A stretch of DNA of 64,000 bases from an uncultured Candidatus Binatia bacterium (lineage in GTDB: Bacteria; Desulfobacterota; Binatia; Bin18), in assembly GCA_965232605.1 (NCBI GenBank), contig CBDDQA010000006.1:159077-223076 (forward strand). Reading direction: 5' to 3'. A model generated the notes under the pieces. The model was not told where the DNA came from and made no database searches. It saw only the letters and a program-made list of their open reading frames with translations. Positions 1 to 61,720 of the stretch are shown piece after piece (within the stretch, counting starts at the first letter, position 1; every line of letters starts with the position of its first letter). The position numbers and the translations under genes were made by a program.

Positions 1-54
1 TTTATCGAGGACGCGAAGGCGGTGTCCCAAGCGATACAACAATCAACATCATGA
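1..54 (+). CDS. 3' end of an upstream gene (partial). Its stop overlaps the hsdS ATG (ATGA). Genomic context suggests a type I RM methylase subunit (hsdM), but identity is not determinable.
   Basis: Open frame from position 1 ending in TGA at 52-54, overlapping the ATG at 51. Translational-coupling arrangement typical of hsdM-hsdS. Confidence 0.3.
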   Translation, partial: FIEDAKAVSQAIQQSTS

Positions 55-2243
55 CCCGGCAACTCAACGTCAAACCCCGCCACCGGGAACAGCTTACCCG
101 CTTGCTGCACGAGTATCTGCCCGGCGTAGAAGTGTGGGCCTACGGCAGCCGCGTCAACGGCAGAAGCCACGAAGGTAGCGACCTGGACCTGGTATTACGC
201 GCTCCCGGTCTCGCCAAAATCGGCCCCGCGCAACTGGCCGCATTCAACGAAGCAGTGCAGGAATCCACCATCCCCTTTCTCATAGAAGCGCGGGATTGGG
301 CACGGTTGCCGGACAGTTTTCAGCGGGAGATTGAGCGGGAGTATGTGGTGTTGGTGGAGAGGGAGGGGCGGGGTGGAGCGGGTGAGTTGCTTGAAACAAC
401 ATTGGGCGATCTCATCGACATCAAGCATGGCTTTGCCTTCAAAGGCCATGACATTCACGACGAACCATGCGGAGATGTGCTACTAACCCCTGGTAATTTC
501 GCTATTGGTGGGGGATTCAAGGGTGACAAGTTCAAGTACTACGATGGGTCCGTTCCAGAAGAGTTCGTGCTTCACGAAGGTGACTTGCTCGTCACTATGA
601 CTGACCTTAGTAAACAATCGGATACGCTCGGCTATCCAGCATTCGTACCTGCGCTTACGGATGGCCGCCGTTACCTGCATAATCAGCGTCTTGGCAAAAT
701 TTCTCTTAAAGAAAACTCAGAAATAGACCTGAGGTATATCTATTACGTTATGTGTGGCGCAGATTATCGCCACGAGGTACTAGCGAGCGCGACCGGGACC
801 ACTGTCAAGCATACGTCGCCCGACCGGATCAAGCGGTTTCGCTTCCTTCCCGTTCCGTTACCCGAACAGCACACCATCGCCCACATCCTCAGCACCCTTG
901 ACGACAAGATCGAATGCAACCGCCGCATGAACGCCACCCTCGAAGAGATGGCGCGGGTGCTCTTCAAGAGTTGGTTCATCGACTTCGACCCCGTACACGC
1001 CAAAGCCACCCTCCGGCGGCACGCCGCCACCAAAATCACTCCCCCCTTGAGGGGGAGTCGGCAAGCCAAGGGCGCCAGCCCGCCGGCGCGCCGGTGGGGG
1101 GGAATCAGACGCCTCTACTCCCCGCAAACCCTCCAAAAAGCCCACGCCCTGCGCCACAACCAAACCAATGCCGAGGGCCTGCTCTGGTACTACCTCCGCG
1201 CCAAACAACTCGACGGCTACAAATTCCGCCGTCAGCAGCCCATCGGCCCGTATATTGTCGATTTTGCCTGCCTGTCCGAAAAGCTGCTCATCGAACTCGA
1301 CGGCGGCCAACACGCGGAGCGGACAGCCTCCGATGCTCGGCGAGACAGATTTTTACAGAAAAAGGGGTACAGGGTCTTACGCTTTTGGAATCATGAAGTC
1401 TTCGAGAACTGTTTCGGCGTGTTGGAGAGCATTTATGCTGCCCTGCCTCATCACCCTCCCCTGCCTCATCACCCTCCCCTTGAGGGAGGGTCGAAAGACG
1501 CCAGTCTTTCGGGGAGGGGGTCCCCCCCACCGCCTCAGCCGGCGCCTAGCGGCTTGGCTTCTGCGACTCCCCCTCCAGGGGGGAGTGATTGGACGGTTGA
1601 GCGGGCGCGGGCGTATCTGGGCGGGATGGACCCTGGCGTTGCAGCGTTGTTCCCGGATCGTTTTGTGGATTCGGAGTTGGGGGAGATACCGGAGGGGTGG
1701 GAGGTGAAAGCGCTGGGAGAGGAGGTTGAGTTAGCCTACGGCAAAGCCCTGAAAGCAGCAGCACGGAAAGGTGGAGCCATTCCTGTGTACGGCTCAAATG
1801 GCCAGGTCGGTTGGCACGATAAGAAGTTGGCAACGGGACCAGGAATTATTGTCGGACGGAAAGGGAATCCCGGAGTAACCACATGGGTACAAAGTGATTT
1901 CTTTCCCATTGACACGACGTTCTATGTCGTACCCAAGGAAGGCCGACAAAGTCTGTACTTTTTATTCTATGCCCTGGAAAGACAGAGACTTGCAGACCTC
2001 ACTGCTGATTCTGCCGTGCCTGGCTTGAATCGCAATCTGGCCTACATGAACAAGCTGCTCATCCCTGATGGTATGACAATCGAGAGTTTTAACGATTATG
2101 CCAAGACGCTTTTCGCTCGTCGCCATCAGCTAGAGGAAGAATCCCGCACCCTCACCACCCTACGCGACACACTACTGCCGAAGCTCATATCCGGCGAACT
2201 GCGAGTCACGGACACCGAACGTTTCTTGGAATCCATGAATTAA
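51..2243 (+). CDS. hsdS: Type I restriction-modification specificity subunit HsdS with unusual architecture. It has an N-terminal minimal nucleotidyltransferase (MNT-type, GS...DxD) domain, a first target-recognition domain (TRD1), a central conserved region, an in-frame inserted DUF559/Vsr-like endonuclease domain, then TRD2 and the distal conserved region.
   Basis: The translation carries the MNT motif YGSRVNGRSHEGSDLDLVL. HsdS-like TRD and conserved-region motifs are present (LPEQHTIAHILSTLDDKIE...LFKSWFIDFDP and a C-terminal TLLPKLISGEL-type helix). The inserted segment matches the DUF559 consensus (GYKFRRQQPIGPYIVDFACLSEKLLIELDGGQHAE...GYRVLRFWNHEV). It is a single uninterrupted ORF. Confidence 0.85.
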   Translation: MTRQLNVKPRHREQLTRLLHEYLPGVEVWAYGSRVNGRSHEGSDLDLVLRAPGLAKIGPAQLAAFNEAVQESTIPFLIEARDWARLPDSFQREIEREYVVLVEREGRGGAGELLETTLGDLIDIKHGFAFKGHDIHDEPCGDVLLTPGNFAIGGGFKGDKFKYYDGSVPEEFVLHEGDLLVTMTDLSKQSDTLGYPAFVPALTDGRRYLHNQRLGKISLKENSEIDLRYIYYVMCGADYRHEVLASATGTTVKHTSPDRIKRFRFLPVPLPEQHTIAHILSTLDDKIECNRRMNATLEEMARVLFKSWFIDFDPVHAKATLRRHAATKITPPLRGSRQAKGASPPARRWGGIRRLYSPQTLQKAHALRHNQTNAEGLLWYYLRAKQLDGYKFRRQQPIGPYIVDFACLSEKLLIELDGGQHAERTASDARRDRFLQKKGYRVLRFWNHEVFENCFGVLESIYAALPHHPPLPHHPPLEGGSKDASLSGRGSPPPPQPAPSGLASATPPPGGSDWTVERARAYLGGMDPGVAALFPDRFVDSELGEIPEGWEVKALGEEVELAYGKALKAAARKGGAIPVYGSNGQVGWHDKKLATGPGIIVGRKGNPGVTTWVQSDFFPIDTTFYVVPKEGRQSLYFLFYALERQRLADLTADSAVPGLNRNLAYMNKLLIPDGMTIESFNDYAKTLFARRHQLEEESRTLTTLRDTLLPKLISGELRVTDTERFLESMN
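1038..1059. repeat. Perfect palindrome (ACTCCCCCC TTGA GGGGGGAGT-like) at the left border of the DUF559 insertion inside hsdS.
   Basis: Inverted repeat read directly from the sequence. A related copy lies at ~1566-1587. Confidence 0.6.
1444..1491. repeat. Two tandem 18-bp repeats (ctgcctcatcaccctccc x2, encoding PHHPPL PHHPPL) followed by a palindrome (CCCTCCCC TTGA GGGAGGG) at the right border of the DUF559 insertion.
   Basis: Direct tandem repeat and inverted repeat visible in the sequence. Confidence 0.6.
1566..1587. repeat. Second palindrome (ACTCCCCC TCCA GGGGGGAGT), a partner of the one at 1038-1059.
   Basis: Inverted repeat in the sequence. It encodes a Pro/Gly-rich linker in the hsdS frame. 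Confidence 0.55.
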
Positions 2244-2402
2244 AAGACTGATAGCGCCTATAAGAATACGCATTCAAGCAAGGGCAATAGAAGCATCTGA
2301 CTCTGCGAAATTCCGCGCCCACCTGCCCCGAATCCACCGTCGAAACAACATCCAGCATCGTCTATACTGGCCCGTTATCGTTTGGTTGTCGGAGGTGTAA
2401 CC

Positions 2403-2672
2403 GTGGAAATTTCCAAACCCCAGCGTATATGGACCGTAGCCGAAGCGAAGGCCCACCTGTCGGAAATTTTGCGGCTGGCCGAAGAGGAGGGGCCGCAGTA
2501 TATCGGTAAGAGAAACACTTTCGTCGTGGTGCCCAAACGACTGTGGCAAAAGCAATCGCCGCCGCGCAAGCCCTTTGGCCAGTGGCTCATTGAGAACGTA
2601 CCACGCGGTACCAATCTTGAGGTTTCGGACCGGCGCTCCAATCGCCCGATTCCCTTCATTGACATTGAGTAA
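2403..2672 (+). CDS. Orphan Phd/YefM-family antitoxin-like protein sitting between hsdS and hsdR. No cognate toxin is adjacent.
   Basis: The N-terminal motif VEISKPQRIWTVAEAKAHLSEILRLAEEEGPQYIGKRNTFVVVP resembles Phd/YefM antitoxins. A GGAGG RBS lies 6 nt upstream of the GTG at ~2403. The tracked ORF starts at the ATG at 2382. Confidence 0.5.
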   Translation: MEISKPQRIWTVAEAKAHLSEILRLAEEEGPQYIGKRNTFVVVPKRLWQKQSPPRKPFGQWLIENVPRGTNLEVSDRRSNRPIPFIDIE

Positions 2673-2765
2673 ATTGTTCAGCTATTTCCGGCCCCAGGCG
2701 GAAGATTTGGCCCGGCGCTTGTTGGAGCCACGCTGATTGAAACCCGTTGAGGACTGGCTGAAAAC

Positions 2766-5700
2766 ATGACCGCCTTCACCGAATCCACTGTCGAAGACGC
2801 CACCCTGACCTGGCTCGAAAGCCTCGGCTGGAACATCGCCCACGGGCCGGACACCGCGCCCGATACGCTGGGCGCGGAGCGTGGCGACTACGGAACGGTG
2901 GTGCTGGAACGGCGGCTGCGCGATGCTCTCGTCCGACTCAACCCCACCCTGCCGTCCGAAGCCCTGGACGACGCTTTTCGGAAGCTGACCCACCCGGAAG
3001 GACCAACGCTCGAAGCCCGTAACCGCGCCTTTCACCGGATGCTCGTGGATGGCGTAACGGTGGAGCGGCGTACAGATGACGGGACGGTCCGTGGGGCGCA
3101 GGCGCGAGTGATCGACTTTGATACGCCCGTCAATAACGACTGGCTGGCGGTCAATCAGTTTACGGTTGTTGAGAACAAGCACGAACGCCGGCCCGATGTG
3201 GTGCTGTTCGTCAATGGCCTGCCGCTCGGAGTGGTCGAACTCAAGAACCCGGCGGACGAAGACGCAACCATCTGGACCGCCTGGCAACAACTCCAGACCT
3301 ATAAGGCCGAACTGCCGACGCTGTTCAGCATGAACGCGGCCCTGTTGGTCTCGGACGGAGTTGAAGCGCGCATTGGCACGCTGACCGCCGGGCGGGAGTG
3401 GTTCAAGCCCTGGCGCACAATCTCGGGCGAAACCCTGGCCGACCCGCACCTGCCCCAATTGCAGGTCATGCTCGAAGGCGTGTGCCGACCGGGACGCTTT
3501 CTTTCGCTGATCCGCGACTTCATTGTGTTCGAGGATGACGGCAGCGGGGCATTGGTCAAGAAAATGGCCGGCTATCACCAGTTCCACGCGGTCAGGGTTG
3601 CCGTGACCGAGACGCTACGGGCTACAGAAGTGGAATTGGCGGAAGGCCGGATTTCCAGTGGGTTTGGCCGCTACGAGTCGGGCCGCAAACCGGGCGGCGA
3701 GCCCGGCGACCGGCGTATCGGCGTGGTGTGGCACACGCAGGGATCGGGCAAGAGCCTGACCATGGCCTTCTATGCCGGACGCATCATCCGTGAGCCGGCG
3801 ATGCAGAATCCGACCATCGTGATGCTGACCGACCGCAACGACCTGGACGACCAACTTTTCGGTACGTTCGCGCGTTGCCAGGACCTGTTGCGCCAGCCGC
3901 CGGTGCAAGCGGCAAGCCGGGCCGACCTGCGCGCCAAGCTCGCAGTCGAGTCGGGCGGCGTGGTCTTTACGACCATTCAGAAGTTCTTTCCTGATGAAGA
4001 GGGTGACCGACATCCGGTCCTGTCGGAGCGGCGCAATATCGTGGTCATTGCCGATGAGGCCCACCGCAGCCAGTACGACTTCATCGACGGCTATGCGCGG
4101 CATATGCGGGACGCCCTGCCCCACGCCTCGTTTGTCGGTTTCACCGGCACGCCGATTGAGTTGCAGGACGCCAACACCCGAGCCGTGTTTGGCGACTATA
4201 TCAGCATCTACGACATCCAGCGCGCGGTCGAGGACAAAGCGACCGTGCCGATCTATTACGAGAGTCGGCTGGCCAAACTGACGTTGGACGAGAACGAGCG
4301 GCCGAGGATCGATCCCGACTTCGAGGACGCAACCGAGGGCGAGGAGATCGCTCGTCAGGAAAGGCTCAAAACCAAATGGGCGCAACTCGAGGCGATTGTC
4401 GGCACGGAAAAGCGTGTGCAGCTCATCGCCCAGGATATCGTTACCCACTTCGAGCGGCGCCTGGAAGCGCTCGACGGCAAGGCCCTGGTCGTCTGCATGA
4501 GCCGGCGCATCTGTATCGAGCTGTACCGTGAACTGGTGCGGCTGCGCCCGGACTGGCATCGGGAGGAAGACGACCAGGGACAGATCAAAGTCGTGATGAC
4601 CGGTTCGGCATCCGACCCTCCCAACTGGCAGCCGCATATCCGCACCAAGTCGCAGCGCGAGGCCCTGGCAAAACGCTTCCGTTCCCCCGGCGACCCGCTC
4701 CGCCTGGTGCTGGTACGCGACATGTGGCTGACCGGCTTTGACGCGCCGAGCCTGCACACCATGTATGTGGACAAGCCCATGCGCGGCCACGGCCTGATGC
4801 AGGCCATCGCCAGGGTCAACCGGGTGTTCCGGGACAAGCCGGGCGGGCTGGTGGTGGACTACCTGGGGCTGGCGCAGGAATTGAAACGCGCGCTGACAAC
4901 CTACACCGAGAGCGGCGGCAGCGGAGGAACCGCATTCGACCAGGAGCAGGCGGTAGAGGTGATGATGGAGAAGTATGAGGTCTGTTGCGACCTGCTCCAC
5001 GGCTTTGACCGCTCGCAGTGGAGCACCGGCGCGCCAACGGAACGGCTGGCCCTGTTGCCGGCGGCGCAGGAACACATCCTGGCCCAGGAGAACGGCAAGG
5101 AGCGTTATCTTGTTGCCGTACGGGAGCTGTCTCAGGCATTTGCCCTGGCCGTCCCGCATGAAGCCGCGTTGCACATTCGGGACGAGGTCGCATTCTTTCA
5201 GGCCGTCCGGTCGGTCCTCGCCAAGCGAGCGCCCGGGGATACCCGTCCCGAGGAAGAGTTGGACCACGCGGTACGCCAGATCGTTTCGCGCGCCGTGGCC
5301 TCGGAAGGGGTGCTCGACATCTTCTCCGCCGCCGGGCTGGAGAAACCCGATATCTCGGTTCTGTCGGATGAATTCCTGGCCGAGGTGCGGGACATGCCGC
5401 AGCGCAACCTCGCGGTCGAACTGTTGCAGAAATTGTTGAAAGGTGAACTCGCCGTCCGCCGCCGGAAAAACCTTGTCCAGGCACGGTCGTTCGCCGAAAT
5501 GCTGGAACACACCCTGCGGCGCTATCAGAACCGGGCCGTTGAAGCCGCGCAGGTGATAGAAGAACTGATTCAACTCGCCCAGGAGTTGCGCGAGGCCAGC
5601 GCGCGGGGCGAAAAACTCGGCCTGTCGGAAGACGAGGTCGCGTTCTATGACGCGCTCGAAACAAATGACAGTGCGGTTCAGGTGCTCGGCGATGAAACCC

Positions 5701-5906
5701 TGCGCGATATCGCCCGTGAATTGGTGCAAACCGTGCGTAATAACGTCACCATTGACTGGACGCGGCGCGAGAATGTCCGCGCCAACCTGCGCCGCCTGGT
5801 TAAGCGCATTCTGCGCAAGCACGGTTATCCGCCTGACAAGCAGGAACGAGCGACCCGGACCGTACTGGAACAGGCCGAGGTGCTGTCCGCCGGCTGGGCG
5901 GTTTAA
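2766..5906 (+). CDS. hsdR: Type I restriction enzyme R subunit (HsdR), an SF2 helicase/endonuclease.
   Basis: Canonical HsdR N-terminus ([29 protein letters not shown]), Walker A motif GSGKSLT, DEAH box [11 protein letters not shown]. Length 1046 aa. Confidence 0.95.
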
Positions 5907-10250: not shown

Positions 10251-11444
10251 ATGCAAACCGCGACGGAGAACAGACGCTGGTCAAAGGAATACCCCGAGTT
10301 GGGGACGGGACCCGTGCCGGCGGAATCGTGCATTTCCCCGGAGTATTTTGAGCTTGAACGCGAACGGGTCTTTCGCCGTACCTGGCTCAACGTGGGCCGC
10401 GTCGATGATATTCCCAACGCGGGCGACTTTTTCGTGCGCGAGCTGGCGGTGTGTAAAACCTCGATTCTGGTCATCCGAGGCAAGGACGGCGTCATCCGCG
10501 GCTTTCACAATGTCTGCTCGCACCGTAGCAACAAGCTGGTCTGGGAAGAGCGTGGGACCTGCCGTGGGGCCTTAGCCTGCCATTTTCATAGTTGGGGGTA
10601 TAACGCCCAGGGGCAACTCACCGGCGTCCCGGACGAAGAGAACTTCCACGATATCAATAAGAGCGAGCTGGGACTCACCCCGGTGACTACCGACATCTGG
10701 GAAGGGTTTATCTTTGTCCATCTGGGTTCACAGCCCCAAGAGACGCTCACCGACTATCTGGGTGGCGTGGCTGACCAGATGAAAGGGGCCGCCTTTCATA
10801 AACGAAAACACACCCACACGTATAAAGTTGAAGAGCAGGCCAACTGGAAGGTTGCCCTGGACGCCCAGAACGAGGCGTATCACCTGCCCTTCCAGCATCG
10901 CTATTCCTTTCCCGGGATGTTCGTCCTCAAAGACAACCGCTATCTGCGTCTCTCGGGTGTGAAGCTGTATAATCATCACGCGGTCTGGTCGACCACCTAT
11001 AATTCGGAAAGTACGCCGACGCCGACTGGGGCGCTCATGAACCAGCTCAATACGGCCACCACCAACAGCCGCCTGCCCATGCTGGGGGATTTCGACTTTT
11101 TTGTGATCTTTCCCAATTTTGTCATTCTCCAGTTTCGGGGCATCGAAGACGACTATTACATGACCTATAATTTCTGGCCGCTGGCGGTGGATCGCTGCAT
11201 CTGGGAGATCAAATTTCATTTCCCGCCCGCCGAAACGGCCGGCCAGCGACTCAGCCAGGAATACCTCAAACACCGCATCTGCGATGTGCTCCAAGAGGAC
11301 GCCGTGGCGCATGAGACCCTGCAAACCGGTCTGAGCTCGCGGGCGAAAACACATCTCATCCTCCAGGATGATGAGATCCAGATTCGGCATTTTCACAAAG
11401 TGTTGGAAGACTATATGGGGTTCTTCAACGGACGGGGGCACTGA
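10251..11444 (+). CDS. Rieske [2Fe-2S] non-heme-iron oxygenase alpha subunit (paralog 1).
   Basis: CSHRSNKL...CHFHSWGY Rieske motif. Catalytic domain with E..H..YH/D ligand pattern. Confidence 0.9.
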   Translation: MQTATENRRWSKEYPELGTGPVPAESCISPEYFELERERVFRRTWLNVGRVDDIPNAGDFFVRELAVCKTSILVIRGKDGVIRGFHNVCSHRSNKLVWEERGTCRGALACHFHSWGYNAQGQLTGVPDEENFHDINKSELGLTPVTTDIWEGFIFVHLGSQPQETLTDYLGGVADQMKGAAFHKRKHTHTYKVEEQANWKVALDAQNEAYHLPFQHRYSFPGMFVLKDNRYLRLSGVKLYNHHAVWSTTYNSESTPTPTGALMNQLNTATTNSRLPMLGDFDFFVIFPNFVILQFRGIEDDYYMTYNFWPLAVDRCIWEIKFHFPPAETAGQRLSQEYLKHRICDVLQEDAVAHETLQTGLSSRAKTHLILQDDEIQIRHFHKVLEDYMGFFNGRGH

Positions 11445-11767
11445 TGGCCGAAGTGCCTCTGCCGGAGCCGTTTCAGGGCCTTGAGCCGTTCAGGGTCTGG
11501 GCCCTGGCCACGGAGCGCGAGCGTCGCGCCAAGCGTCTGTCCAGCAGCATGGAGGAGATTCAGGCGTTCTACGACGCGCTCTTTCCCCAGTTGGAGGCCG
11601 TGGTTGCCTATCTCGACCAGTTTCCGCTTGACCAACTCCCCGCACAGGCGCAGCCGCTCTACTATCTGACGCTTTCGCTGGTGGAAGTCACCAGCGCCGT
11701 AGAACTGTATCACAATCCCCATATCTTTGAGGCCATTGAGCCCGCCCGCTTCCGGCGAGTGGAATAA
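11444..11767 (+). CDS. Conserved ~107-aa protein of unknown function, translationally coupled to Rieske alpha 1. Paralogs at 28840 and 35999.
   Basis: ATGA overlap with the upstream stop. Shared motif WALATE.ER...RLSSSM..IQ..YD.L.P..EAV..YL..FP. No Cys, so not a ferredoxin. Confidence 0.6.
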   Translation: MAEVPLPEPFQGLEPFRVWALATERERRAKRLSSSMEEIQAFYDALFPQLEAVVAYLDQFPLDQLPAQAQPLYYLTLSLVEVTSAVELYHNPHIFEAIEPARFRRVE

Positions 11768-12604: not shown

Positions 12605-13435
12605 ATGTCCAGCCAGGCGACGAGTCGCTATGCCACCATTAACGGTCTCAGGCTCCACTATGTGGAGTGGGGCGATGCGCAGGCAACGCCTCTGGTCTGT
12701 CTGCACGGCTTACGGGCCTACGGCCACTGGTTCGATGAGTTGGCCGCGGTCGTGAGCGACCGGTATCGGGTCCTGGCCCTGGACCAGCGCGGACGGGGTG
12801 AGACCGACTGGGCCGCGGACGGCGACTACACGCGGGAAGCCTACGTCTCGGATGTGGAGGCCTTTGTCGAGACGCTCCAACTCGACCGGTTCATCCTGGT
12901 CGGCCACTCGATGGGCGGTCTCAACGCCATCCACTATGCCGCGCGTCACCCCGAGCGGGTGCTGGCGCTGGGCATCCTGGACATCGGCCCGGAGATTGAC
13001 CCCGCCGGCATGCAGCGCATACGCGCCGAACTGGGGGAGACGCCGGCGGGGTTTGACTCCTGGCCGGCGGCCAAGGCGTTTCTGCAGATGCGCCATCCCA
13101 AAGCCTCGGAGGAAAACCGCCGGACGCGCCTCACCTGGATGCTCAAGGAGGACGCGGACGGCAGGATTGCGTGGCGGATAGACCAGGCCATTTTCGACCC
13201 GAACCTGAAGCCTGACGATCCACAGCAGACCTGGGACCTGCTGAGTCAGATTCGCTGCCCGACCCTGATCCTGCGCGGTGGGGAGTCGGACGTGCTGAGC
13301 GTTGACACCTGTCAAAAAATGCTCACCCGCATCCCGGACGGTCAATGGGTCGAAATTCCCGGCGCGGGTCATATGGTGCTTGAGGATAATCCCGAGGCGT
13401 GCAACGCGGCGCTGCGCGACTTCTTCAAACGTTAG
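12605..13435 (+). CDS. Alpha/beta-fold hydrolase.
   Basis: GHSMGG nucleophile elbow. GGAGGG RBS before the ATG at 12605. The tracked ORF extension overlaps the SDR gene and is rejected. Confidence 0.85.
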   Translation: MSSQATSRYATINGLRLHYVEWGDAQATPLVCLHGLRAYGHWFDELAAVVSDRYRVLALDQRGRGETDWAADGDYTREAYVSDVEAFVETLQLDRFILVGHSMGGLNAIHYAARHPERVLALGILDIGPEIDPAGMQRIRAELGETPAGFDSWPAAKAFLQMRHPKASEENRRTRLTWMLKEDADGRIAWRIDQAIFDPNLKPDDPQQTWDLLSQIRCPTLILRGGESDVLSVDTCQKMLTRIPDGQWVEIPGAGHMVLEDNPEACNAALRDFFKR

Positions 13436-13443
13436 GAGAATCT

Positions 13444-14589
13444 ATGGCTGCACCGCTCGCCCTTCAGGACTTCTCAAAAACGCGCCAGGACCTGCTGCAC
13501 GCCAGGCATTTGCCGGGCGAGTTTTACACCTCAGCCGAGATTTTCCAAAAAGAGATCGAACAGATCTTCATGAAAGACTGGCTGTGCGTCGGCCGGGTCG
13601 AGCAATACGCCAAGCCGGGCGACTACCGCGCCCTGCGGATCGCCGGCGAGCCGGTCCTGATCTGTAAGGATAAGAGCGGCCGGCTGCACGCCTTTGCCAA
13701 CGTGTGTCAGCATCGCGGGGTCGAAGTTGTCCGGGGTGAAGGGAATACCCAGGAGTTCAGCTGTCCGTATCACGCCTGGACCTACGGGCTGAACGGCGAG
13801 TTGACCGGTGCGCCCTATAGTGCACCGGTCACCACCTTCGACTGGGAGTCCTGCCGTTTGCCCACGGTTCAACTCGATACCTGGGCGGGCTATATCTTCA
13901 TTAACTTCGATCCCCAGGCGGAGAGCCTGGCCTCCTACCTCGCCGTTGACCGCGTGCAGGAAGCCGCCGGGTTTTTACACGCCGAAGACACCCGCATCGC
14001 CGACGAATACACCTTTGAGCTGGACTGCAACTGGAAATTTATCCCGGAAAACCTGATGGACATTTACCACGTCGGCGTGATTCACGGCTCGTCTTTCGGC
14101 AAGGTCTTTCCCGTAGACAAATTTCCGTTCTCCCTGACCCCGCACGGCTATCACTCGGAGTACGAGAGCCTGACCATGGCCCCGGACGGCGCCTGGCTGT
14201 TTGGCAAGGCCATGCCCTGGCTGGAGCAGAAGTCGCAGTCCTTCGCCTTTACCATCTTCATCCGGCCCAGTTTCAATATGTTTGCCCGGCCCGACATGCT
14301 CCAGCCGTGGTTCTGTCATCCCATCGCGCCGGACAAAACGCGCATTACCATCCTGACCCAATACCCGGCCGAGTGGTTTGAGCAGCCGGCCTTCGAGGCC
14401 AAGAACGCGGTGGTCAAGGATTTCATCCGGCTGGTCGCCGGCGAAGATAAGGAGATGATGCTCTCGCTCCAGAACGGCGTCGGCTCCCGCAACTTCCGCC
14501 CCGGGCCGACCATGGGCCTCGAAAAGGCCATCCACCATTTGCTGAACTCCTATCTCGATCGCATGTTCGGGGCGGAGATGGCGAGGTGA
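13444..14589 (+). CDS. Rieske oxygenase alpha subunit from a different subfamily. No small partner gene.
   Basis: CQHRG...CPYHAW Rieske motif. AGGAG RBS before the ATG at 13444. Confidence 0.9.
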   Translation: MAAPLALQDFSKTRQDLLHARHLPGEFYTSAEIFQKEIEQIFMKDWLCVGRVEQYAKPGDYRALRIAGEPVLICKDKSGRLHAFANVCQHRGVEVVRGEGNTQEFSCPYHAWTYGLNGELTGAPYSAPVTTFDWESCRLPTVQLDTWAGYIFINFDPQAESLASYLAVDRVQEAAGFLHAEDTRIADEYTFELDCNWKFIPENLMDIYHVGVIHGSSFGKVFPVDKFPFSLTPHGYHSEYESLTMAPDGAWLFGKAMPWLEQKSQSFAFTIFIRPSFNMFARPDMLQPWFCHPIAPDKTRITILTQYPAEWFEQPAFEAKNAVVKDFIRLVAGEDKEMMLSLQNGVGSRNFRPGPTMGLEKAIHHLLNSYLDRMFGAEMAR

Positions 14590-27501: not shown

Positions 27502-28836
27502 ATGATTCAGCCGGCGCGGCGTCCATTGTATTCCCGGCCGAGATGGAGCAGGATAACATCATATTCACAGACAACACATCGACGAGGGATACCATGCAAG
27601 ACAGCGTACACACACACCAATGGCAAACGCTGGACGCTCGACCACCCGGAGCTGGGAACCGGACCGCTGCCCGTCACGCCCTATCTTTCCGCAGCGTATT
27701 TTGAGCAGGAGCGCGAGAAAATTTTTACCCGCACCTGGTTGTGTACGGGTAAGAAAATCGAGGAAATCCCGCAGCCGGGCGATTATCTGGTGCTGGATAT
27801 TGCGGTCGGCAAAACCTCGGTCCTGCTCGTCCGGGGTAAAGACGGCCGGGTGCGCGGGTTTCACAATGTGTGCAAACATCGTGGTAATCGACTGGCCTGG
27901 AACGATCGCGGCGCCTGTGGCTCCGGGTTGACGTGTCGCTTCCACGGCTGGACCTATGCCGCGGACGGCCGCCTGGTCGGGGTGCCGGAAGAAGATATGT
28001 TCTTTGACTTTGACAAGCGGGACTACGGCCTGAGTCCGGTCGCCACGGATGTCTGGGCAGGCTTTATCTTTATCAACCTCGATCCCGACCCGCCGGAAAC
28101 GCTGCACCAGTATCTGGGCGAAGTGGTTGACCTGCTGCGCGGCTATGCGTTTGACCGCCTGCCGCTGAGCTGGTCGTATACGGCCGAGCAGAAGTGCAAC
28201 TGGCGGATTCTGCGCGACTCGCAGCTCGAGTTCTATCACGGCAAGGCGCTGCACCAGCAGTTCGCCGGCAAGGTGATGATGAATAAGCGGCAGCCGTCCT
28301 GCCACGTCCTCGACGTCAAACTCTTTCGCCGCCACAGCATGATGTCGTTTTACGGCGACCGCCGGAATACCCAACGCACGCCCATGGAGCTGTTGATGGC
28401 CCAATTCGGGGCCAGCTTCAAAACCTTTCCCAGCGCGCGGGATATGGACCGCTGGCCCCTCGGGGTCAATCCCACCCGTAGCCGGCAGTGGTTCTTTGAT
28501 ATCTATTATATCTTTCCCAATTTTCATCTGGTGATTCTGAGCCCCTTTCTGTTTGTCGCCCACACCATGTTGCCGGAGACGGTCAATCGCTCGACCTGGA
28601 ACGCGCGGGGCTATTTCCCGCAGCCCACGACTGCCGCAGAGACAGTGACGCGCGAATATAATAAATGCCTGGCGCGGGACGTGTGGCTGGAAGATGGCAG
28701 TACCCTGGAAAACACCCAGCGCGGGATCGAGTCGGGCGTCCTCAGCCAGTATCCGGTCCAGGACCAGGAACTACTGATCCGCCACGCCCATCAGGTGGCG
28801 GAAGAGTTGCTCGGCAGCAACGGGCAAACGGGATGA
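27502..28836 (+). CDS. Rieske oxygenase alpha subunit (paralog 2).
   Basis: CKHRGNRL...CRFHGWTY. Start placed at the first in-frame ATG downstream of the untranslatable-looking extension. The true start is uncertain. Confidence 0.8.
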   Translation: MIQPARRPLYSRPRWSRITSYSQTTHRRGIPCKTAYTHTNGKRWTLDHPELGTGPLPVTPYLSAAYFEQEREKIFTRTWLCTGKKIEEIPQPGDYLVLDIAVGKTSVLLVRGKDGRVRGFHNVCKHRGNRLAWNDRGACGSGLTCRFHGWTYAADGRLVGVPEEDMFFDFDKRDYGLSPVATDVWAGFIFINLDPDPPETLHQYLGEVVDLLRGYAFDRLPLSWSYTAEQKCNWRILRDSQLEFYHGKALHQQFAGKVMMNKRQPSCHVLDVKLFRRHSMMSFYGDRRNTQRTPMELLMAQFGASFKTFPSARDMDRWPLGVNPTRSRQWFFDIYYIFPNFHLVILSPFLFVAHTMLPETVNRSTWNARGYFPQPTTAAETVTREYNKCLARDVWLEDGSTLENTQRGIESGVLSQYPVQDQELLIRHAHQVAEELLGSNGQTG

Positions 28837-28839
28837 GGC

Positions 28840-29181
28840 ATGGCCGATACGAGCCTGCCCGAGGCGTTCGCCGACCTTGAGCCGCTGGCCGCGGTCTGGG
28901 CGCTGGCGACCGAAACCGAGCGCAACCAGCAGCGTCTCAGCAGCAGCATGGCGCAGATTCAAGCCTGCTACGACACCCTGCTGCCCCGCATGGAGGCCGT
29001 TCTCACCTATCTGAGTACATTCCCGCCAGAGCCGCCAGATGCACTGCCCCAAGAGGCCCGGCGGCTCTTATACCTGGCCCTGGCCCTGGCCGAAATCACC
29101 ACCGCGGTGGAACTCCATCAACAGCCGGGCGTGCCCGCCGGCTTTGATCCGCAGCGCTTTATTCCCGACCACGAGCGGTAA
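28840..29181 (+). CDS. Conserved ~113-aa partner protein (paralog 2), 3 nt after the Rieske stop.
   Basis: MADTSLPEAFADLEPLAAVWALATETERNQQRLSSSMAQIQACYDTLLP... Confidence 0.6.
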   Translation: MADTSLPEAFADLEPLAAVWALATETERNQQRLSSSMAQIQACYDTLLPRMEAVLTYLSTFPPEPPDALPQEARRLLYLALALAEITTAVELHQQPGVPAGFDPQRFIPDHER

Positions 29182-34302: not shown

Positions 34303-34668
34303 ATCTCCCTCCTTCCGACGTTATCGCCTATCAATTCGGGGGTACGATAGCAAACGATACTGGAGAAGTCATAAGGGACGTTACAGTCTTAGCGGGGCAA
34401 TGGCAACGATGAGGGGAAAAGTGGGTCACGTGAAAGTGAAAGGTCAGGGATTTGTAATGCGCATCTCTACTGAAGTCACTGAACGGCTCAACCGCTTCTG
34501 GAGTACGTCCCGTTTCGTAAAATGGCTCATTTTCTGACGAATCGTTGCCGGCTCCCATAAAGGACGTCCGTTTTGAAAAGGCGCCCGCCTTTACAGCATT
34601 GACAGCCTGAGGCCGGCTCACGTAGTTAGGGCGCGGGGAAAAAATAGTTCGTTGTGAGGGAGGGCTCT

Positions 34669-35958
34669 ATGGCTGAATCTGTTGAAGGCGGACGAGTGCC
34701 AGAGATAGGCAACCCGCACGGGATGGACTGGACTCCGCTCCGAGATGTTGGGAAGGCGGAGATTCCCGTCTCTCGATACGTCTCAGACGACTACTACGCG
34801 AGAGAGAAGGAACGTATCTGGCGACGTTCGTGGCTGTTGATCGGACGCGAGTCGGACGTTTCGAAAGCCGGAGATTTTTTCACCTTCTACCTCCACGTTC
34901 TGAGCACGCTGGTCATCGTGATTCGCGGAAAGGACGGGGAGCTGCGAGCGTTTCACAACGTCTGTCAGCACCGGGGGGCCCAGATCCAACACGAAGCCTG
35001 TGGCAGTTGCAGGGCGCTTACCTGTGCATTTCACGGATGGGTGTATGATCTGGACGGCTCGCTCCTTAACGTGCCTCAGGCCGAGCAGTTTGAAGAACTC
35101 GACTACGAGGAGCGGCAACTGAAGAGGATCCATCTTGATACCTGGGGCGGCTTCGTCTTCATCAACCTGGACCCGGCCGACCAGCCCGAACACACGCTCG
35201 CAGAATGGCTCGGTCCGATGCCGGGGCCGCTTGGCGAGTATTTCGCGAAGGAGAACTGGATCTGGCGGGTCGGTTGGAAAGGTATCTTCGAGGCCAATTG
35301 GAAAATCATGGTCGACGTTCAGCTGGAGGGCTACCACGTCAATGCGCTCCACGCCAAGACCATCGGAGGGGTCTTCGGCCCAGCGCAGCTTCAGAACCTC
35401 GCCTTTCCAGATACGCCGGGAATGCCGACCAAGCTCGAGTTCATGCGCCCGGACATTTCGAAAGACAAGAGCTTCCGGCGTCCAATTCAAACGCCCGTGA
35501 TGAAAGCGGCCGTGGAGTACGGGGCCACATCTCCCTTTACTGACAAAGACGCCTCCTCGGGCGGTATTCCCCTCCGCGCGAACCACTACCCCGGAGCAAT
35601 CAACAGGCTGGACGACCCTCTTTGGATCTTCGACGACTACCTGATCTTTCCGAACGTGGTGATGATGGCGCAGACCGACCACATCTGGTTGCAACGAGTG
35701 TGGCCGATTTCCCAGCATCGCACAGCCTGGGAGTTCGAGTGGTATTTCATCGATTGGCCCAAAAGCTTCGGCGAGTGGTTTGCCTGGGAGCAGGCCTACT
35801 GCCATTTTCGAGATGTGACAACCCAAGACATGGTGAACGTCGAAGGAATGCAAAAGGCCTACCGCGCCGGCTCCATCAGTACAATGGTCGTCTCAGATAT
35901 CGAGGGCGGCGTACGGTGCTTTCAGGACAAAGTCACCCAGATCGTTGGCGCAGAGTGA
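34669..35958 (+). CDS. Rieske oxygenase alpha subunit (paralog 3).
   Basis: CQHRGAQI...CAFHGWVY. GAGGGAGGG RBS before the ATG at 34669. Confidence 0.85.
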   Translation: MAESVEGGRVPEIGNPHGMDWTPLRDVGKAEIPVSRYVSDDYYAREKERIWRRSWLLIGRESDVSKAGDFFTFYLHVLSTLVIVIRGKDGELRAFHNVCQHRGAQIQHEACGSCRALTCAFHGWVYDLDGSLLNVPQAEQFEELDYEERQLKRIHLDTWGGFVFINLDPADQPEHTLAEWLGPMPGPLGEYFAKENWIWRVGWKGIFEANWKIMVDVQLEGYHVNALHAKTIGGVFGPAQLQNLAFPDTPGMPTKLEFMRPDISKDKSFRRPIQTPVMKAAVEYGATSPFTDKDASSGGIPLRANHYPGAINRLDDPLWIFDDYLIFPNVVMMAQTDHIWLQRVWPISQHRTAWEFEWYFIDWPKSFGEWFAWEQAYCHFRDVTTQDMVNVEGMQKAYRAGSISTMVVSDIEGGVRCFQDKVTQIVGAE

Positions 35959-35998: not shown

Positions 35999-36349
35999 AT
36001 GCCGGACTTCCGTCACCTGAAGGACTACATCGAAACGTGGGGTCTCCCGACGCGGGAGGCCCGCCTGGAGAAGCGTTTAACGAGTTCGTTCCAAGAACTC
36101 AAAGACTTCTACGAAGCAGTGGGCCCACACCTCGACGAAATCATCGCCTTCCTGAATCAATGGCCCCTGGACGAGATCCCCCCAGAACATCGGAGCCTCG
36201 CCGACACCGCACTGATGCTGTGCGAGGCCGACAACCCGGTCACTAAGTGGCGATCGACCACGCTCACATCCGGTGTCGATCCGCGGCGACTCGAGGTGAA
36301 AGCCAACCCGTACGACTCGCCTCAGCTCGACGCAACGAAACGTCCGTAG
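35999..36349 (+). CDS. Conserved ~116-aa partner protein (paralog 3).
   Basis: AAGGAGG RBS. MPDFRHLKDYIETWGLPTREARLEKRLTSSFQELKDFYEAVGPHLDEIIAFLNQWPLDEIP shares the motif skeleton of the other two partners. Confidence 0.55.
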   Translation: MPDFRHLKDYIETWGLPTREARLEKRLTSSFQELKDFYEAVGPHLDEIIAFLNQWPLDEIPPEHRSLADTALMLCEADNPVTKWRSTTLTSGVDPRRLEVKANPYDSPQLDATKRP

Positions 36350-47317: not shown

Positions 47318-48256
47318 ATGCTCGATATGCTCGACAACCCCGTTCCGTGGCCCGACGGCGCGCGCTGCGCAGCATCCATCACGTTCGACATGGATACGGA
47401 CAGCGCCCTGCACCTGTCGCATGCCGACGCCTACAAACGAGTGGCCGCCCTGTCGTGGTTACGCTACGACGAGGTGGCGGTGCCGCGGATCGTGAAGCTG
47501 TTTAACCACTATCATATCAAGGGAACCTTTTTCGTACCGGGCTGGTGCGTTGAACGCTATCCGGCCACGGTCGAGCCGATTGTCGCCAGTGGCCACGAAC
47601 TGGCCTATCACGGCTATTTGCACGAGAACCCCATGGACCAGACCCGCGAGGGCGAACGCTACTGGTTGGAGCGCAGCATTGAGGCGATCGAGCGGCTCAG
47701 CGGCAAACGACCGGCCGGCGGGCGGGCGCCGTATTACAATTACTCGCCCCACTCCACCGGGCTGCTGGCCCAGGCCGGCTTTGTGTATGATTCGAGTCTC
47801 ATGGCTGACAGCCAGCCCTACGTCATGCGCGCGCCCGAGGGCGAGGTCATCGAACTGCCGACCGACTGGGCCATGGACGACTGGCCGCAATACGCGCATA
47901 GCCCGGACTTTCGGTATCTGATGCCGACGCGCGCGCCGGATAAAGCCATGGAAATTTTCATGGCCGAGTTCGAGGCGGCTTATGCGTGCGGCGGCCTGTG
48001 GGTCACGGTCTGGCATCCGTTCGTGACCGGGCGGCTGGCTCGCCTGGCCGAAGTGGCAAAGATGATAGAAGCGATGCAAAACCGTGGCGACGTGTGGTTT
48101 GCCACCATGGAGGAAATCGCCCTGCACGTGCGGCGCTGTATTGCTGACGGAAGCTATACCCCGCGCGTTGTTGCCATGCCCTATTACGAGGAACCCATTC
48201 CGGAATTGACCGAGGGATTTCCCGCCGGCCTGGAACTCAGAAAACCGCGCGGTTAG
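47318..48256 (+). CDS. Polysaccharide deacetylase family protein (second copy).
   Basis: NodB-homology motifs. Confidence 0.8.
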   Translation: MLDMLDNPVPWPDGARCAASITFDMDTDSALHLSHADAYKRVAALSWLRYDEVAVPRIVKLFNHYHIKGTFFVPGWCVERYPATVEPIVASGHELAYHGYLHENPMDQTREGERYWLERSIEAIERLSGKRPAGGRAPYYNYSPHSTGLLAQAGFVYDSSLMADSQPYVMRAPEGEVIELPTDWAMDDWPQYAHSPDFRYLMPTRAPDKAMEIFMAEFEAAYACGGLWVTVWHPFVTGRLARLAEVAKMIEAMQNRGDVWFATMEEIALHVRRCIADGSYTPRVVAMPYYEEPIPELTEGFPAGLELRKPRG

Positions 48257-49662
48257 GCCGGACGCCGTTTGTGCCAGGCTGTGCTCTGCTCGTAGGCATA
48301 CGCCAGGTGCAGGACCGTCGCTTCCTCAAACGGTCGTCCGACAATCTGGAGCCCGACCGGGAGACCCTCGGGTGTAAGCCCGCACGGCACTGAAATGGCG
48401 GGCAGGCCGGTCATATTAAACGGTCGAGTTGCCCGAGCGATATGGGCCGCAACCGGGAATTCCTGGTCGCCTATGGTGACGGTCGGCTGGTCTATCCTGC
48501 TGGCCGCCAGGACGGTGGTCGGCGTCACCAACGCATCGACCTGGCCGAGCAGGTCGAGCATCTCCTGACATAACAGCGACCGAAAGCGTTGGGCCTTGAG
48601 ATATTGCGCGGCCGGCACGCAGGCGCCGAGCAACAGCCGGGTGCGTACGTCAGCGCCATAGTCCTGGCTGCGAGTCTGCATGGTCCGGGCATGAATCTCG
48701 TATGCCTCCGCGGCAATAATGGCGGTCGAGCTGGCAATCACATGTGGAATGCTGGGGATGGAGACGGCTTCGACGGTCGCCCCTAAGTCAGACAAATGCT
48801 GTATGGCGGCCTGCACCCTCTCCCGGACCGCCGGCTCAATATCGTCAAAAAAATACTCTTGTGGCACGCCGAGACGGAGCCCACGGATGTCCTCCTTCAG
48901 GGCCACCGCATAATCTGGCACCGCTACCGCGCTGGCGGTCGGGTCGTTGGGGTCGGGGCCGGCGATGGCGTGCAGCAATATGGCAGCATCGGCAACCGTT
49001 CTGACCATGGGGCCGACATGATCGCACGAATGGCTGAGCGGATAGACCCCGAACCGACTCACCCGCCCATACGTCGGTTTAAGACCCACGATGCCGCTCA
49101 GCGAGGCTGGGATACGGACCGAGCCGCCCGTATCTGTCCCGAGCGTTCCCAGGGCCAGGCCGGCCGCCATAGCTACCGCCGAGCCGCCGCTCGACCCACC
49201 GGGAAGACGCCTGCGGTCCCACGGGTTGCGGGGGGTGCCATAGTGCGGGTTGAGCGAGGTTCCACCCCAGGCGAACTCGTGCATATTGAGTTTTCCCAGC
49301 AATATCGTGCCGGCCTGCCGGAGGCGGGTGACGACCGTAGCGTCGCTCTCCGCGATATGGTCGGCCAGAATTTTTGAGCCGCAGGTCATGCGGACACCCT
49401 TGACCGCAAACAGGTCCTTGAGCGCGATGGGAATGCCGTGGAGCGGCCCTCTGTATTGCCCGTGCACGATTTCCTGTTCCGCGGCGCGTGCCGCGGCCAG
49501 CGCTGCGTCTCTCAATATGGTGAGATAGGCCAGGTATTCGTCATTCAGGCGGTTAATCCGGTCAAGATAAACCTGGGTCACCTCCAGGGGAGAGACTTCT
49601 TTCTTTTGGATGCGGGGCGCTAACTCGGCAATACTCGTAAAGGCGAACTCTTCAGCCTTCAT
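48253..49662 (-). CDS. Amidase-signature family enzyme (second copy).
   Basis: GGSSGGSAVA AS-signature. Confidence 0.9.
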   Translation of the reverse strand: MKAEEFAFTSIAELAPRIQKKEVSPLEVTQVYLDRINRLNDEYLAYLTILRDAALAAARAAEQEIVHGQYRGPLHGIPIALKDLFAVKGVRMTCGSKILADHIAESDATVVTRLRQAGTILLGKLNMHEFAWGGTSLNPHYGTPRNPWDRRRLPGGSSGGSAVAMAAGLALGTLGTDTGGSVRIPASLSGIVGLKPTYGRVSRFGVYPLSHSCDHVGPMVRTVADAAILLHAIAGPDPNDPTASAVAVPDYAVALKEDIRGLRLGVPQEYFFDDIEPAVRERVQAAIQHLSDLGATVEAVSIPSIPHVIASSTAIIAAEAYEIHARTMQTRSQDYGADVRTRLLLGACVPAAQYLKAQRFRSLLCQEMLDLLGQVDALVTPTTVLAASRIDQPTVTIGDQEFPVAAHIARATRPFNMTGLPAISVPCGLTPEGLPVGLQIVGRPFEEATVLHLAYAYEQSTAWHKRRPA

Positions 49663-49855
49663 GGCGTTCGCCCTCCGACATGACCAGGCGCACCGCCGGC
49701 TCTATATGGCTGAGGTTCAGCGCGTCCAGGGCGTCCAGGCCCGCGGACAATTGCCCATACAGCGTGGTCAGCTCTTCCAGAGCATCTTCGCTCAGCGGTT
49801 CCGCGAGCTTGTCTCGGAGAAGAGCAGCCACGAGTTCTCGATCTCTCATGTCCAT
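49652..49855 (-). CDS. GatC/AtzG-like mini-protein (~67 aa) upstream of and overlapping amidase 2.
   Basis: MDMRDRELVAALLRDKLAEPLSEDALEELT... GatC-like helix pattern. GAGGAAGG RBS. Confidence 0.55.
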   Translation of the reverse strand: MDMRDRELVAALLRDKLAEPLSEDALEELTTLYGQLSAGLDALDALNLSHIEPAVRLVMSEGERHEG

Positions 49856-49926
49856 TTCACCTTCCTCAGACGTTGTTGCCTGTGGATCAGCGCCGAGTGG
49901 TCCGGCGCCCAGATTTTGCGAGCTTG

Positions 49927-50514
49927 TCATTCTGAGAGGCGAAGGTAAAAAATGACAACAGGCATCTTCGCGAAGGGAAATTCTCTCAATACCGTCACCA
50001 CCTCGCCCAGATACTGCTGCAAGGTTTCCTGCGGGTGGGGATGCAGATGGATAAAGATAAACCCGCCACAGATGTCTGTGGTAACCCGAGTCAGAGCATA
50101 TTCCTTTTTTTCGAAATCAAAGAACATCTCCTCTTCCGGCACCCCGACCAGTTGGCCGTCTGGGGCATACGTCCAGCCGTGGAATTTGCACGTCAATTTC
50201 TGGCACGAACCCGACCCATGCCAAGCAAGCTTATTCCCTCGATGTTTACACACATTATGGAAAGCCCGCACCACGCCGTCCTGTCCGCGAACCACAAGAA
50301 TCGAGGTATTGCCCACGGCAAGGTCCTGAACAAAGTAGTCTCCGGCCTGCGAAATTTCTTCTACTCTTCCGACGTTGAGCCATACCCGCCGAAAGATCCG
50401 TTCACGTTCCAACTCAAAGTATTCCGGCGAAATATAGGATTCAATCGACGCTGGGCCGGTTCCCAGCTCAGGATATTGTGTGGTCCAGCGTGGCTTGTTG
50501 GTGGCAGGCTCCAT
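49927..50514 (-). pseudogene. Truncated Rieske oxygenase alpha subunit. The Rieske domain is intact but the catalytic domain is missing, and the ORF ends where the GatC-like/amidase cassette begins.
   Basis: The first 180 aa are near-identical to paralogs 1 and 2 (CKHRGNKL...CKFHGWTY). The sequence diverges and stops after FPFAKMP. Confidence 0.65.
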
Positions 50515-61232: not shown

Positions 61233-61691
61233 TCAGTCGTTGTTGGCCCAGCTCTCTTCGTAGTTCGTGCTCATGCGGCCACGCGCGCGGAGGTGCTGTA
61301 TCTTCCACTCCCCATTGACTCTGACGTAATCGTCTTCATAGCGCGCCGCCAGCCACTTGGCCTGATTGTCCTTGTAGAACGTGAACGGCCCAAAGAAGTA
61401 CCAGATGCCCGTAGCCCGCTCCCCGTCGATTTTGATGATCGGATTCATCACCTGGTGTTGAGAGAAACTGATCATCGTCTGGAATTTTTTGAACAGCTCA
61501 CGAATGGCCGTATGGCCCTGGGCCTTGCCGAAACCCGCGCCTTCCCAGATGCCGTCTTCGGCAAAAATCGTGGTGATACGCTCCGGGTTGTGGTCGTCAT
61601 CGCAAATATCGCAGTAGGTGGCCTTGAGCTGTTTGATGGCCTCAAGGTCTTCAATCCGCGTGATACGTTGTTCCAACTCGGTCATATCCAT
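61233..61691 (-). CDS. NTF2-like (SnoaL/DUF4440-type) protein.
   Basis: Family-typical length and pattern. Confidence 0.7.
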   Translation of the reverse strand: MDMTELEQRITRIEDLEAIKQLKATYCDICDDDHNPERITTIFAEDGIWEGAGFGKAQGHTAIRELFKKFQTMISFSQHQVMNPIIKIDGERATGIWYFFGPFTFYKDNQAKWLAARYEDDYVRVNGEWKIQHLRARGRMSTNYEESWANND

Positions 61692-61720
61692 TGGTGTCCG
61701 CTCCTTTCTTCGTTTCGGGC

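Follow-up and report, generated by a model that had tools for sequence, protein, structure and literature searches.

We examined a 64,000-nucleotide (nt) stretch of an uncultured Candidatus Binatia genome (contig CBDDQA010000006.1, positions 159,077 to 223,076; the whole stretch is hereafter called the window), in which a gene for the alpha subunit of a Rieske oxygenase is followed, three times over, by a small gene whose product of ~110 amino acids (aa) we call the partner. Rieske oxygenases are central in the breakdown of aromatic and nitrogen-containing compounds and are wanted as biocatalysts, although expressing them as active enzymes is often difficult. The components generally accepted for them are an alpha subunit, a beta subunit of the NTF2 type, a ferredoxin, and a reductase, with rare extras such as NdmE. 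An earlier reading of the sequence (hereafter the original prediction) had proposed that the small protein may be a new accessory of an alpha-only Rieske clade, and our analysis points to a probable new type of subunit or helper that partners one clade of Rieske alpha subunits.

Three alpha and partner gene pairs in the window

All six open reading frames (ORFs) of the predicted module are present on the forward strand, with the small ORF 3′ of the large one each time. Alpha-1 (10251–11444, 397 aa) is followed by partner 1 (11444–11767, 107 aa, isoelectric point (pI) 4.8), alpha-2 (27502–28836, in an ORF open from 27376 and with a conserved body from ~27613) by partner 2 (28840–29181, 113 aa, pI 4.4), and alpha-3 (34654–35958, starting at GTG 34654 or ATG 34669) by partner 3 (35999–36349, 116 aa, pI 5.2). 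Pfam places Rieske (PF00355) and Ring_hydroxyl_A (PF00848) domains in all three large ORFs, with E-values of 3.2e-14 and 2.2e-27, respectively, for alpha-1 and of 1.3e-18 and 1.8e-21 for alpha-3, which is the most divergent of the three alphas (~29–30% identity to alpha-1). Partners 2 and 3 are 53% and 33% identical to partner 1, and the three align over their full length with 25 invariant columns, including a W-x-L-x-T...R...RL-SS...Y...P skeleton. The three-fold module of the original prediction is thus borne out in its coordinates, its domains, and the paralogy of its members.

The spacing within the pairs was also as predicted: the start of partner 1 overlaps the stop of alpha-1 by a single nucleotide (TGATG), the genes of pair 2, which share one reading frame, are 3 nt apart, and pair 3 has a 40-nt spacer. 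The strong ribosome-binding site claimed for every pair holds for pair 3, where a canonical AAGGAGG lies 6 nt 5′ of the partner-3 ATG, and not for pairs 1 and 2, whose Shine-Dalgarno sequences are G-rich and moderate only. Protein identity to orthologues in Candidatus Binatia metagenome-assembled genomes (MAGs) is 88–95% for partner 1 and 95–98% for alpha-1, and the ratio of nonsynonymous to synonymous substitution rates (dN/dS) against ten Binatia orthologues is 0.09–0.25 for partner 1 and 0.04–0.09 for alpha-1, so that the constraint on the partner is comparable to that on alpha. For partner 3, with six differences from its orthologues, dN/dS is uninformative, and these orthologues adjoin alpha-3 orthologues at two loci (L019 and L020). 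Because there are more than 1,000 homologues (see below) and because of the dN/dS of partner 1, we conclude that the small ORFs are real, paralogous genes under purifying selection.

The start of alpha-2 at 27502 in the original prediction is doubtful, and the gene itself stands. Its orthologues (P0270 and P0271) are 414 aa long and begin MQDS...NGKRWTLDH, at the equivalent of ATG 27594, which lies behind a GAGGGA. In the window, a 1-nt indel relative to the orthologues, in a (CA)n run at ~27607–27618 (within 27594–27631), puts this ATG out of the reading frame of the alpha-2 body. Either the assembly is wrong at this point or the frameshift is genuine, and the latter case would force the use of in-frame upstream ATGs (27502 or 27376) together with a non-conserved N-terminal extension.

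The small gene is linked to one alpha clade across bacteria

Across a species-representative genome collection, the alpha of this clade adjoins the small gene at 21 of 21 loci, which belong to Binatia, a "delta proteobacterium," Gammaproteobacteria, Sphingomonas, the actinomycete Spirillospora, and other Pseudomonadota. The same adjacency was found in MAGs of Pyrinomonadaceae and Desulfurellaceae, the latter with two tandem alpha and partner pairs (L025/L026). Metagenomes, from which loci were retrieved with an alignment of the three window partners, yielded 61 loci with 65 copies of the small gene, 57 of them with a clade alpha less than 200 nt away on the same strand (alpha upstream in 50, downstream in 7). 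The other eight copies comprise three that open a small-small-alpha tandem and five at contig ends, which are uninformative; none of the 60 informative metagenome copies is without an alpha. Among plasmids, the small gene is carried by all 14 records whose alpha shares 34% identity or more with alpha-1, lying by its coordinates within ~160 nt of the best alpha match in at least 12 of the 14, and it is absent from the plasmid records of all 17 full-length alpha matches at 32% identity or less.

Conservation beside homologous Rieske genes elsewhere, which the original prediction had left to be checked, therefore holds in the genome loci, the informative metagenome copies, and the plasmid records alike, and the partner is coupled in the genome to one alpha clade in an essentially universal and clade-specific way. 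Many lineages have overlapping stop and start codons or spacers of 3–66 nt, and both gene orders occur. A mirror-tree comparison of the identity matrices of 17 alpha/partner pairs gave r = 0.73, a value that none of 10,000 permutations reached, and since the correlation covers paralogous pairs within single genomes, alpha and partner have been duplicated and inherited as a module.

Variant layouts were also noted, namely small-small-alpha, alpha-small-alpha, and two tandem pairs (metagenome loci L065, L070, and L074; L014 of Sphingomonas; and L025/L026).

The partner is an unnamed family of small helical proteins

A profile of the three partners matched 1,089 proteins at E ≤ 1e-3 in a database clustered at 90%, among them an identical entry with both NCBI and ENA as sources, and an exhaustive hidden Markov model search of 1.84 billion representatives found 1,348 clusters at 50% identity, of which 888 reach E ≤ 1e-10. 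The best 150 of the 1,348 clusters are all stand-alone proteins of 99–169 aa. Long ORFs at L014 and L015, considered as alpha and partner fusions, were rejected as out-of-frame artefacts of high-GC DNA. The family spans Binatia, Acidobacteriota, Actinomycetota, Alpha-, Beta-, and Gammaproteobacteria, and other lineages, and its source names are nearly all "hypothetical protein," with a single exception that looks mis-annotated. As a working definition, we take a family member to be a stand-alone protein of ~100–170 aa that carries the signature LP-x-x-F...W-x-L...R-x-x-x-R...Y...E, present in all three window copies, and whose gene shares an operon with a clade-specific Rieske alpha.

Alignment of 53 family sequences showed invariant columns F10, W19, R27, R31, Y43, and E81, with no cysteine or histidine among the invariant or nearly invariant columns; individual proteins hold zero to two cysteines at non-aligned positions. 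The claim that the partner has no cysteine is right for partner 1 and wrong for partners 2 and 3, which have one each, non-conserved. The conserved cysteine and histidine ligands that an iron-sulfur cluster would require of a ferredoxin are lacking in the family, and because the invariant columns are free of both residues the partner can neither be a ferredoxin nor bind a metal cluster, in agreement with the original prediction. All 17 partners examined are acidic (pI 4.3–5.8), with hydropathy profiles free of any sign of a membrane segment.

The AlphaFold2 (AF2) model of the partner has a mean predicted local distance difference test score (pLDDT) of 87.6, with helices at residues 8–19, 24–33, 36–57, and 70–89 and zero strands. 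The alpha+beta cone with a curved antiparallel sheet that defines NTF2-like proteins is not seen in this model, and none of the three partners matches Ring_hydroxyl_B or another member of the NTF2 clan, even at E ≤ 1 in Pfam, or in NCBIfam, so that the second exclusion of the original prediction, that the partner is no NTF2-like beta subunit, is upheld as well. Comparisons with Pfam, NCBIfam, and PDB sequences assigned the partner to no family (best E-values of 0.01–0.2, mutually inconsistent), and its modelled fold has no detectable relative among the solved structures searched. We found no paper or curated family model (Pfam, NCBIfam) describing the family, and our literature search on accessory, gamma, or third subunits of Rieske oxygenases, or on Binatia together with Rieske enzymes, found nothing relevant. 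Hence, on the modelled fold, the partner represents a large, unnamed family of soluble, acidic, cofactor-less proteins with four predicted helices.

The alpha subunits resemble the quaternary-ammonium Rieske group

The window alphas match PF00355 at 1e-13 to 1e-18 and PF00848 at 2e-21 to 2e-27, as expected of Rieske alpha subunits. In 44 clade sequences, C89, H91, C110, and H113 are invariant in the CxH...CxxH pattern of Rieske ligands, and H211, H216, and D345/D350 are also invariant; by their position, the latter would be the 2-His-1-carboxylate ligands of the mononuclear iron. The single-chain AF2 model of alpha-1 has a pLDDT of 88.8 and a predicted template-modelling (TM) score of 0.90, including the clade-typical N-terminal W-x(3)-YPELGTGP segment. 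Among solved structures, its fold comes closest to that of the carnitine monooxygenase CntA (TM 0.77/0.85, 20% identity), then to those of the terephthalate dioxygenase (TPADO) alpha subunit and of the stachydrine demethylase Stc2, with a probability of 1.00.

The best matches of the window alphas are CntA (PDB 6y8j, 6zgp; sequence E 1.2e-25), Stc2 (3vca), and GbcA, with which they share the PF00355 and PF00848 domains, a length of ~400 aa, and the lack of a canonical beta gene. The likeness to this quaternary-ammonium group is distant, however, with ~20% identity and a sequence match that covers residues 28–216 only. Matches to PDB and NCBIfam entries (CntA, GbcA, HcaE) are confined to the N-terminal half and lie far below the family cut-offs; GbcA, for example, is the best NCBIfam model, but at 119–140 bits against a cut-off of 670. 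CntA is an alpha-only trimer, Stc2 is an alpha3 enzyme, and terephthalate dioxygenase is alpha3beta3, and because the nearest folds thus include both types, the alpha fold does not settle whether a second subunit is to be expected. We know of no small helical partner for the CntA, Stc2, or GbcA enzymes.

Operons and redox partners in cultured bacteria

Cultured bacteria carry the pair within operons. On the Acinetobacter plasmid pYUSHP14-1 (L028), the order is formamidase, alpha, partner, an NTF2-family gene, a StyA-like monooxygenase, flavin reductase, short-chain dehydrogenase/reductase (SDR), a Rieske-type ferredoxin, and a 2Fe-2S reductase, and in Novosphingobium EMRT-2 (L033), formamidase, alpha, partner, an NTF2-family gene, and ferredoxin, with a second pair nearby in the order partner, alpha. 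Variovorax WDL1 (L032) has alpha, partner, a SnoaL-type "ester cyclase," a 2Fe-2S ferredoxin, and genes of the 2,5-dihydroxypyridine pathway. The pair is associated with a PDR/VanB reductase in Rhodococcus qingshengii (L031; alpha, partner, reductase) and, in reversed gene order, in Cupriavidus pinatubonensis (L030; partner, alpha, reductase).

The alpha and partner pair is therefore constant across three conventional electron-transfer arrangements, and because the donor type varies while the pair stays, the partner is tied to alpha and not to one donor. The view of the original prediction that this is an alpha-only clade without redox partners does not survive, since the pairs of cultured relatives sit with ferredoxins or VanB-type reductases. 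Within the window itself the prediction was accurate: no ferredoxin, reductase, or beta subunit is adjacent to any alpha or found among the large ORFs, and neither tblastn with the ferredoxins and reductases of the cultured-bacteria operons nor Pfam scans of 42 further window ORFs revealed a ferredoxin or reductase. The absence of a redox partner thus characterizes the window rather than the clade.

In the Acinetobacter operon, the genes that depend on flavin are already known as the iif/ipo-dho indole genes (PMC12538310). In A. piscicola p38, skatole induces gene1684 (a Rieske oxygenase alpha), gene1687 (StyA-like), and gene1690 (a ferredoxin), and 1687/1688 alone were characterized (PMC11434297). 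The spacing of these gene numbers matches the pYUSHP14-1 operon, and we infer that the p38 genes and the plasmid operon are the same operon. The iif/WHOP indole papers treat the flavin monooxygenase, SDR, and NTF2-like genes and not the Rieske pair (PMC12538310, PMC11434297).

At a Pyrinomonadaceae MAG locus (L022, 1–4665), GRDA, GRDB, and Gly_reductase genes lie directly upstream of the alpha and partner pair. Such glycine/sarcosine/betaine reductase-type neighbours are odd for an O2-dependent oxygenase, and they are a possible hint at small N-methylated or amino-acid-like substrates. PicB, the four-component 6-hydroxypicolinate monooxygenase, was considered as a relative of the system and rejected; it is a standard alpha/beta/ferredoxin/reductase system and unrelated.

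A candidate subunit and its precedents

Our preferred reading, which we put forward tentatively, is that the partner is a cofactor-less, non-catalytic subunit binding its cognate alpha; physical binding, its stoichiometry, and an effect on stability or activity are points that we infer. The partner would be made together with alpha by translational coupling, would bind it as a stoichiometric, non-catalytic subunit, and would act as a functional stand-in for, or an addition to, the NTF2-type beta subunit on an unrelated fold, perhaps stabilizing or shaping the oxygenase oligomer. Electrons would be supplied by an ordinary ferredoxin/reductase or by a VanB-type reductase, which in this Binatia genome would be encoded outside the window.

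By analogy, the best functional comparison for the alpha and partner system may be an alpha/beta Rieske oxygenase in which an accessory subunit has a structural role. The beta subunit (PF00866, NTF2-like; as in naphthalene dioxygenase, biphenyl dioxygenase, and TPADO) is likewise small, cofactor-less, non-catalytic, and presumed structural, and its gene lies beside that of alpha, usually directly downstream, is often translationally coupled to it, and is duplicated with it. The partner differs in having no sequence likeness to beta, in its four modelled helices as against the alpha+beta NTF2 cone, in its length (~110 aa, whereas beta subunits have ~160–190 aa), and in a gene order that can reverse; moreover, some partner operons also hold a separate SnoaL/NTF2-like gene. 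A precedent for an accessory outside both the NTF2 and the redox types is NdmE, the glutathione S-transferase (GST)-like structural subunit of the NdmCDE caffeine N7-demethylase, which is a non-NTF2, non-redox accessory of a Rieske complex. NdmE has a GST fold, another size, and another alpha lineage, however, and the partner has no GST match in Pfam.

Several points weigh against a subunit. The best 150 of the 1,348 family representatives include no natural fusion of alpha and partner, and co-inheritance and a mirror-tree correlation are expected of any two genes in one operon and are not proof of contact. Judging from the model, the alpha-1 fold is complete alone, with nothing visibly missing for a subunit to supply, and CntA, the closest fold, works as an alpha-only trimer. 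In addition, a SnoaL_4/NTF2-family gene lies directly 3′ of the partner in the Acinetobacter (L028, 7345–7836), Novosphingobium (L033, 6374–6880), and Variovorax (L032, 6442–6885) operons and could be the true structural subunit there. Finally, on sphingomonad lin plasmids, which serve hexachlorocyclohexane degradation and are the exception to the linkage, the partner gene stands beside linC and an EthD gene without an intact alpha, in DNA scrambled by IS6100.

The SnoaL_4/NTF2-family gene, which also occurs two genes downstream of the partner at the Pyrinomonadaceae MAG locus (L022, 7074–7580), may be a third component of the oxygenase, a cofactor-independent oxygenase like IifA, or unrelated. 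The IS6100-bounded linC-EthD-partner block was found on pISP4 of Sphingomonas sp. MM-1 (L029, 5466–7288) and in six other sphingomonad plasmid records (H15–H20), with a truncated Rieske oxygenase alpha, an SDR, and a second EthD gene lying across IS6100. The block is a scrambled remnant, and its arrangement hints that linC was recruited from an operon of the partner-associated Rieske clade.

Other explanations for the partner

The main rival to a subunit is a dedicated assembly or maturation chaperone that binds nascent alpha transiently and is absent from the mature enzyme, which we regard as possible though rather unlikely. Such a helper might serve folding, trimerization, or insertion of the Rieske cluster or the mononuclear iron, a role that, by analogy with TorD-type and DmpK/MmoD-type helpers, we also hold to be conceivable rather than probable. 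The strict clade-specific linkage and the co-evolution fit a chaperone equally well as they fit a subunit, the partner is small, acidic, helical, and cofactor-less, and alpha is predicted to be complete alone, with an alpha-only enzyme, CntA, as its nearest fold. TorD and DmsD are indeed all-helical, cofactor-less proteins that serve one dedicated redox enzyme from the same operon. Yet the stop/start overlap, taken to imply ~1:1 synthesis, and a sequence constraint near that of alpha are both more typical of stable subunits, and the partner has no significant likeness to any known chaperone family, with no fold likeness above noise to TorD-like maturation proteins.

It is less probable still that the partner is an effector or gating protein, docking reversibly on alpha to adjust how substrate gains access, how O2 activation is coupled to substrate, or how electrons pass from the donor. 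The parallel is with MmoB, DmpM, and T4moD of the soluble diiron monooxygenases (and with the assembly helpers DmpK and MmoD), small cofactor-less proteins of oxygenase operons that act by binding the oxygenase, and the partner has the makings of one: at ~12 kDa and cofactor-less, it is always encoded with the oxygenase component, independently of the donor type; its invariant residues of surface type include R27 and R31, on the same face of a helix, as well as E81 and R102; and its acidity, which ferredoxins share, could let it compete or cooperate with them where a basic patch serves for docking. This is an argument from analogy alone, however. The diiron monooxygenases belong to another enzyme superfamily, the partner is unlike MmoB/DmpM effectors in sequence and fold, and the functional parallel is speculative. 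We know of no effector of the MmoB/DmpM/T4moD kind for Rieske oxygenases, and the helical protein would, in this improbable case, be the first effector-type component of such an enzyme, obligate for catalysis and gating either substrate/O2 or the transfer of electrons from Rieske cluster to iron. The original prediction had also named an electron-delivery adaptor, replacing ferredoxin or bridging alpha to a generic cellular reductase, in keeping with an acidic protein in a window whose large ORFs include no ferredoxin or reductase; we consider this very unlikely, since a protein without conserved cysteine or histidine or a cofactor motif cannot carry electrons itself, and since the pair coexists with complete conventional chains of three types in cultured bacteria, where the donor changes and the partner stays. 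Just as far-fetched would be an unrelated passenger, e.g., a small regulator or antitoxin-like gene travelling with alpha, of which weak, sub-threshold Pfam noise (ParE_toxin for copy 3, E 0.14) might be a trace. Linkage across at least seven phylum-level lineages, in both orders, with independent duplications and to one alpha clade only, speaks against a passenger, as does the lack of any significant DNA-binding, toxin, or antitoxin family in Pfam and NCBIfam (the padloc library was not searched).

Implications for Rieske enzymes of this clade

At least 1,348 clusters (50% identity) of a protein are thus wedded to one Rieske alpha clade, yet we found no Pfam or NCBIfam model, informative name, or solved structure for them. 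If the partner is a subunit or a required helper, expressing or annotating enzymes of this clade without it would be likely to fail or mislead, and the skatole/indole-induced Acinetobacter operon, of which the flavin monooxygenase alone was studied, is an example of that risk (PMC11434297). Should the less probable effector reading be true, an alpha plus helical-partner architecture would be new, and it would extend over a widespread clade with more than 1,300 sequence clusters. The pair is present in the cultured hosts Acinetobacter, Rhodococcus qingshengii, Cupriavidus, and Novosphingobium, in which the question is directly testable.

Other Rieske genes and surroundings in the window

The count of three alphas in the original prediction is correct for the module, and the window also holds two alphas without a partner gene. 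One (13399–14589, forward strand) belongs to another clade (Pfam Rieske, Ring_hydroxyl_A, and VanA_C), with a polysaccharide deacetylase as its 3′ neighbour and an SDR and an alpha/beta hydrolase before it. An alpha of this other clade is kept ~1.7 kb downstream of pair 1 in ten Binatia loci (L001–L010; 0.9 kb in L003), and two different Rieske oxygenases may act in one pathway. The other (49927–50514, reverse strand) is a truncated fourth alpha of the partner-associated clade, 195 aa long and reduced to the Rieske domain, where tblastn with clade alphas covers approximately residues 1–190. No partner gene lies alongside; this remnant is followed directly by a 92-aa ORF without a Pfam match (49652–49930, reverse strand) and then by a 469-aa ORF that is amidase-like by eye only (48253–49662, reverse strand), and the region of the remnant looks like a decayed or recombined fourth module.

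The window as a whole is a catabolic island, in which amidohydrolases, amidases, luciferase-like and Baeyer-Villiger-type monooxygenases, SDRs, and CoA-transferases abound. It contains one SnoaL_4 gene (61248–61700, reverse strand), ~25 kb from the nearest module. Its left end (51–5906, forward strand) is occupied by type I restriction-modification genes unrelated to the pairs, namely a 730-aa ORF combining a nucleotidyltransferase, an HsdS specificity domain, and DUF559, followed by a 1,046-aa HsdR.

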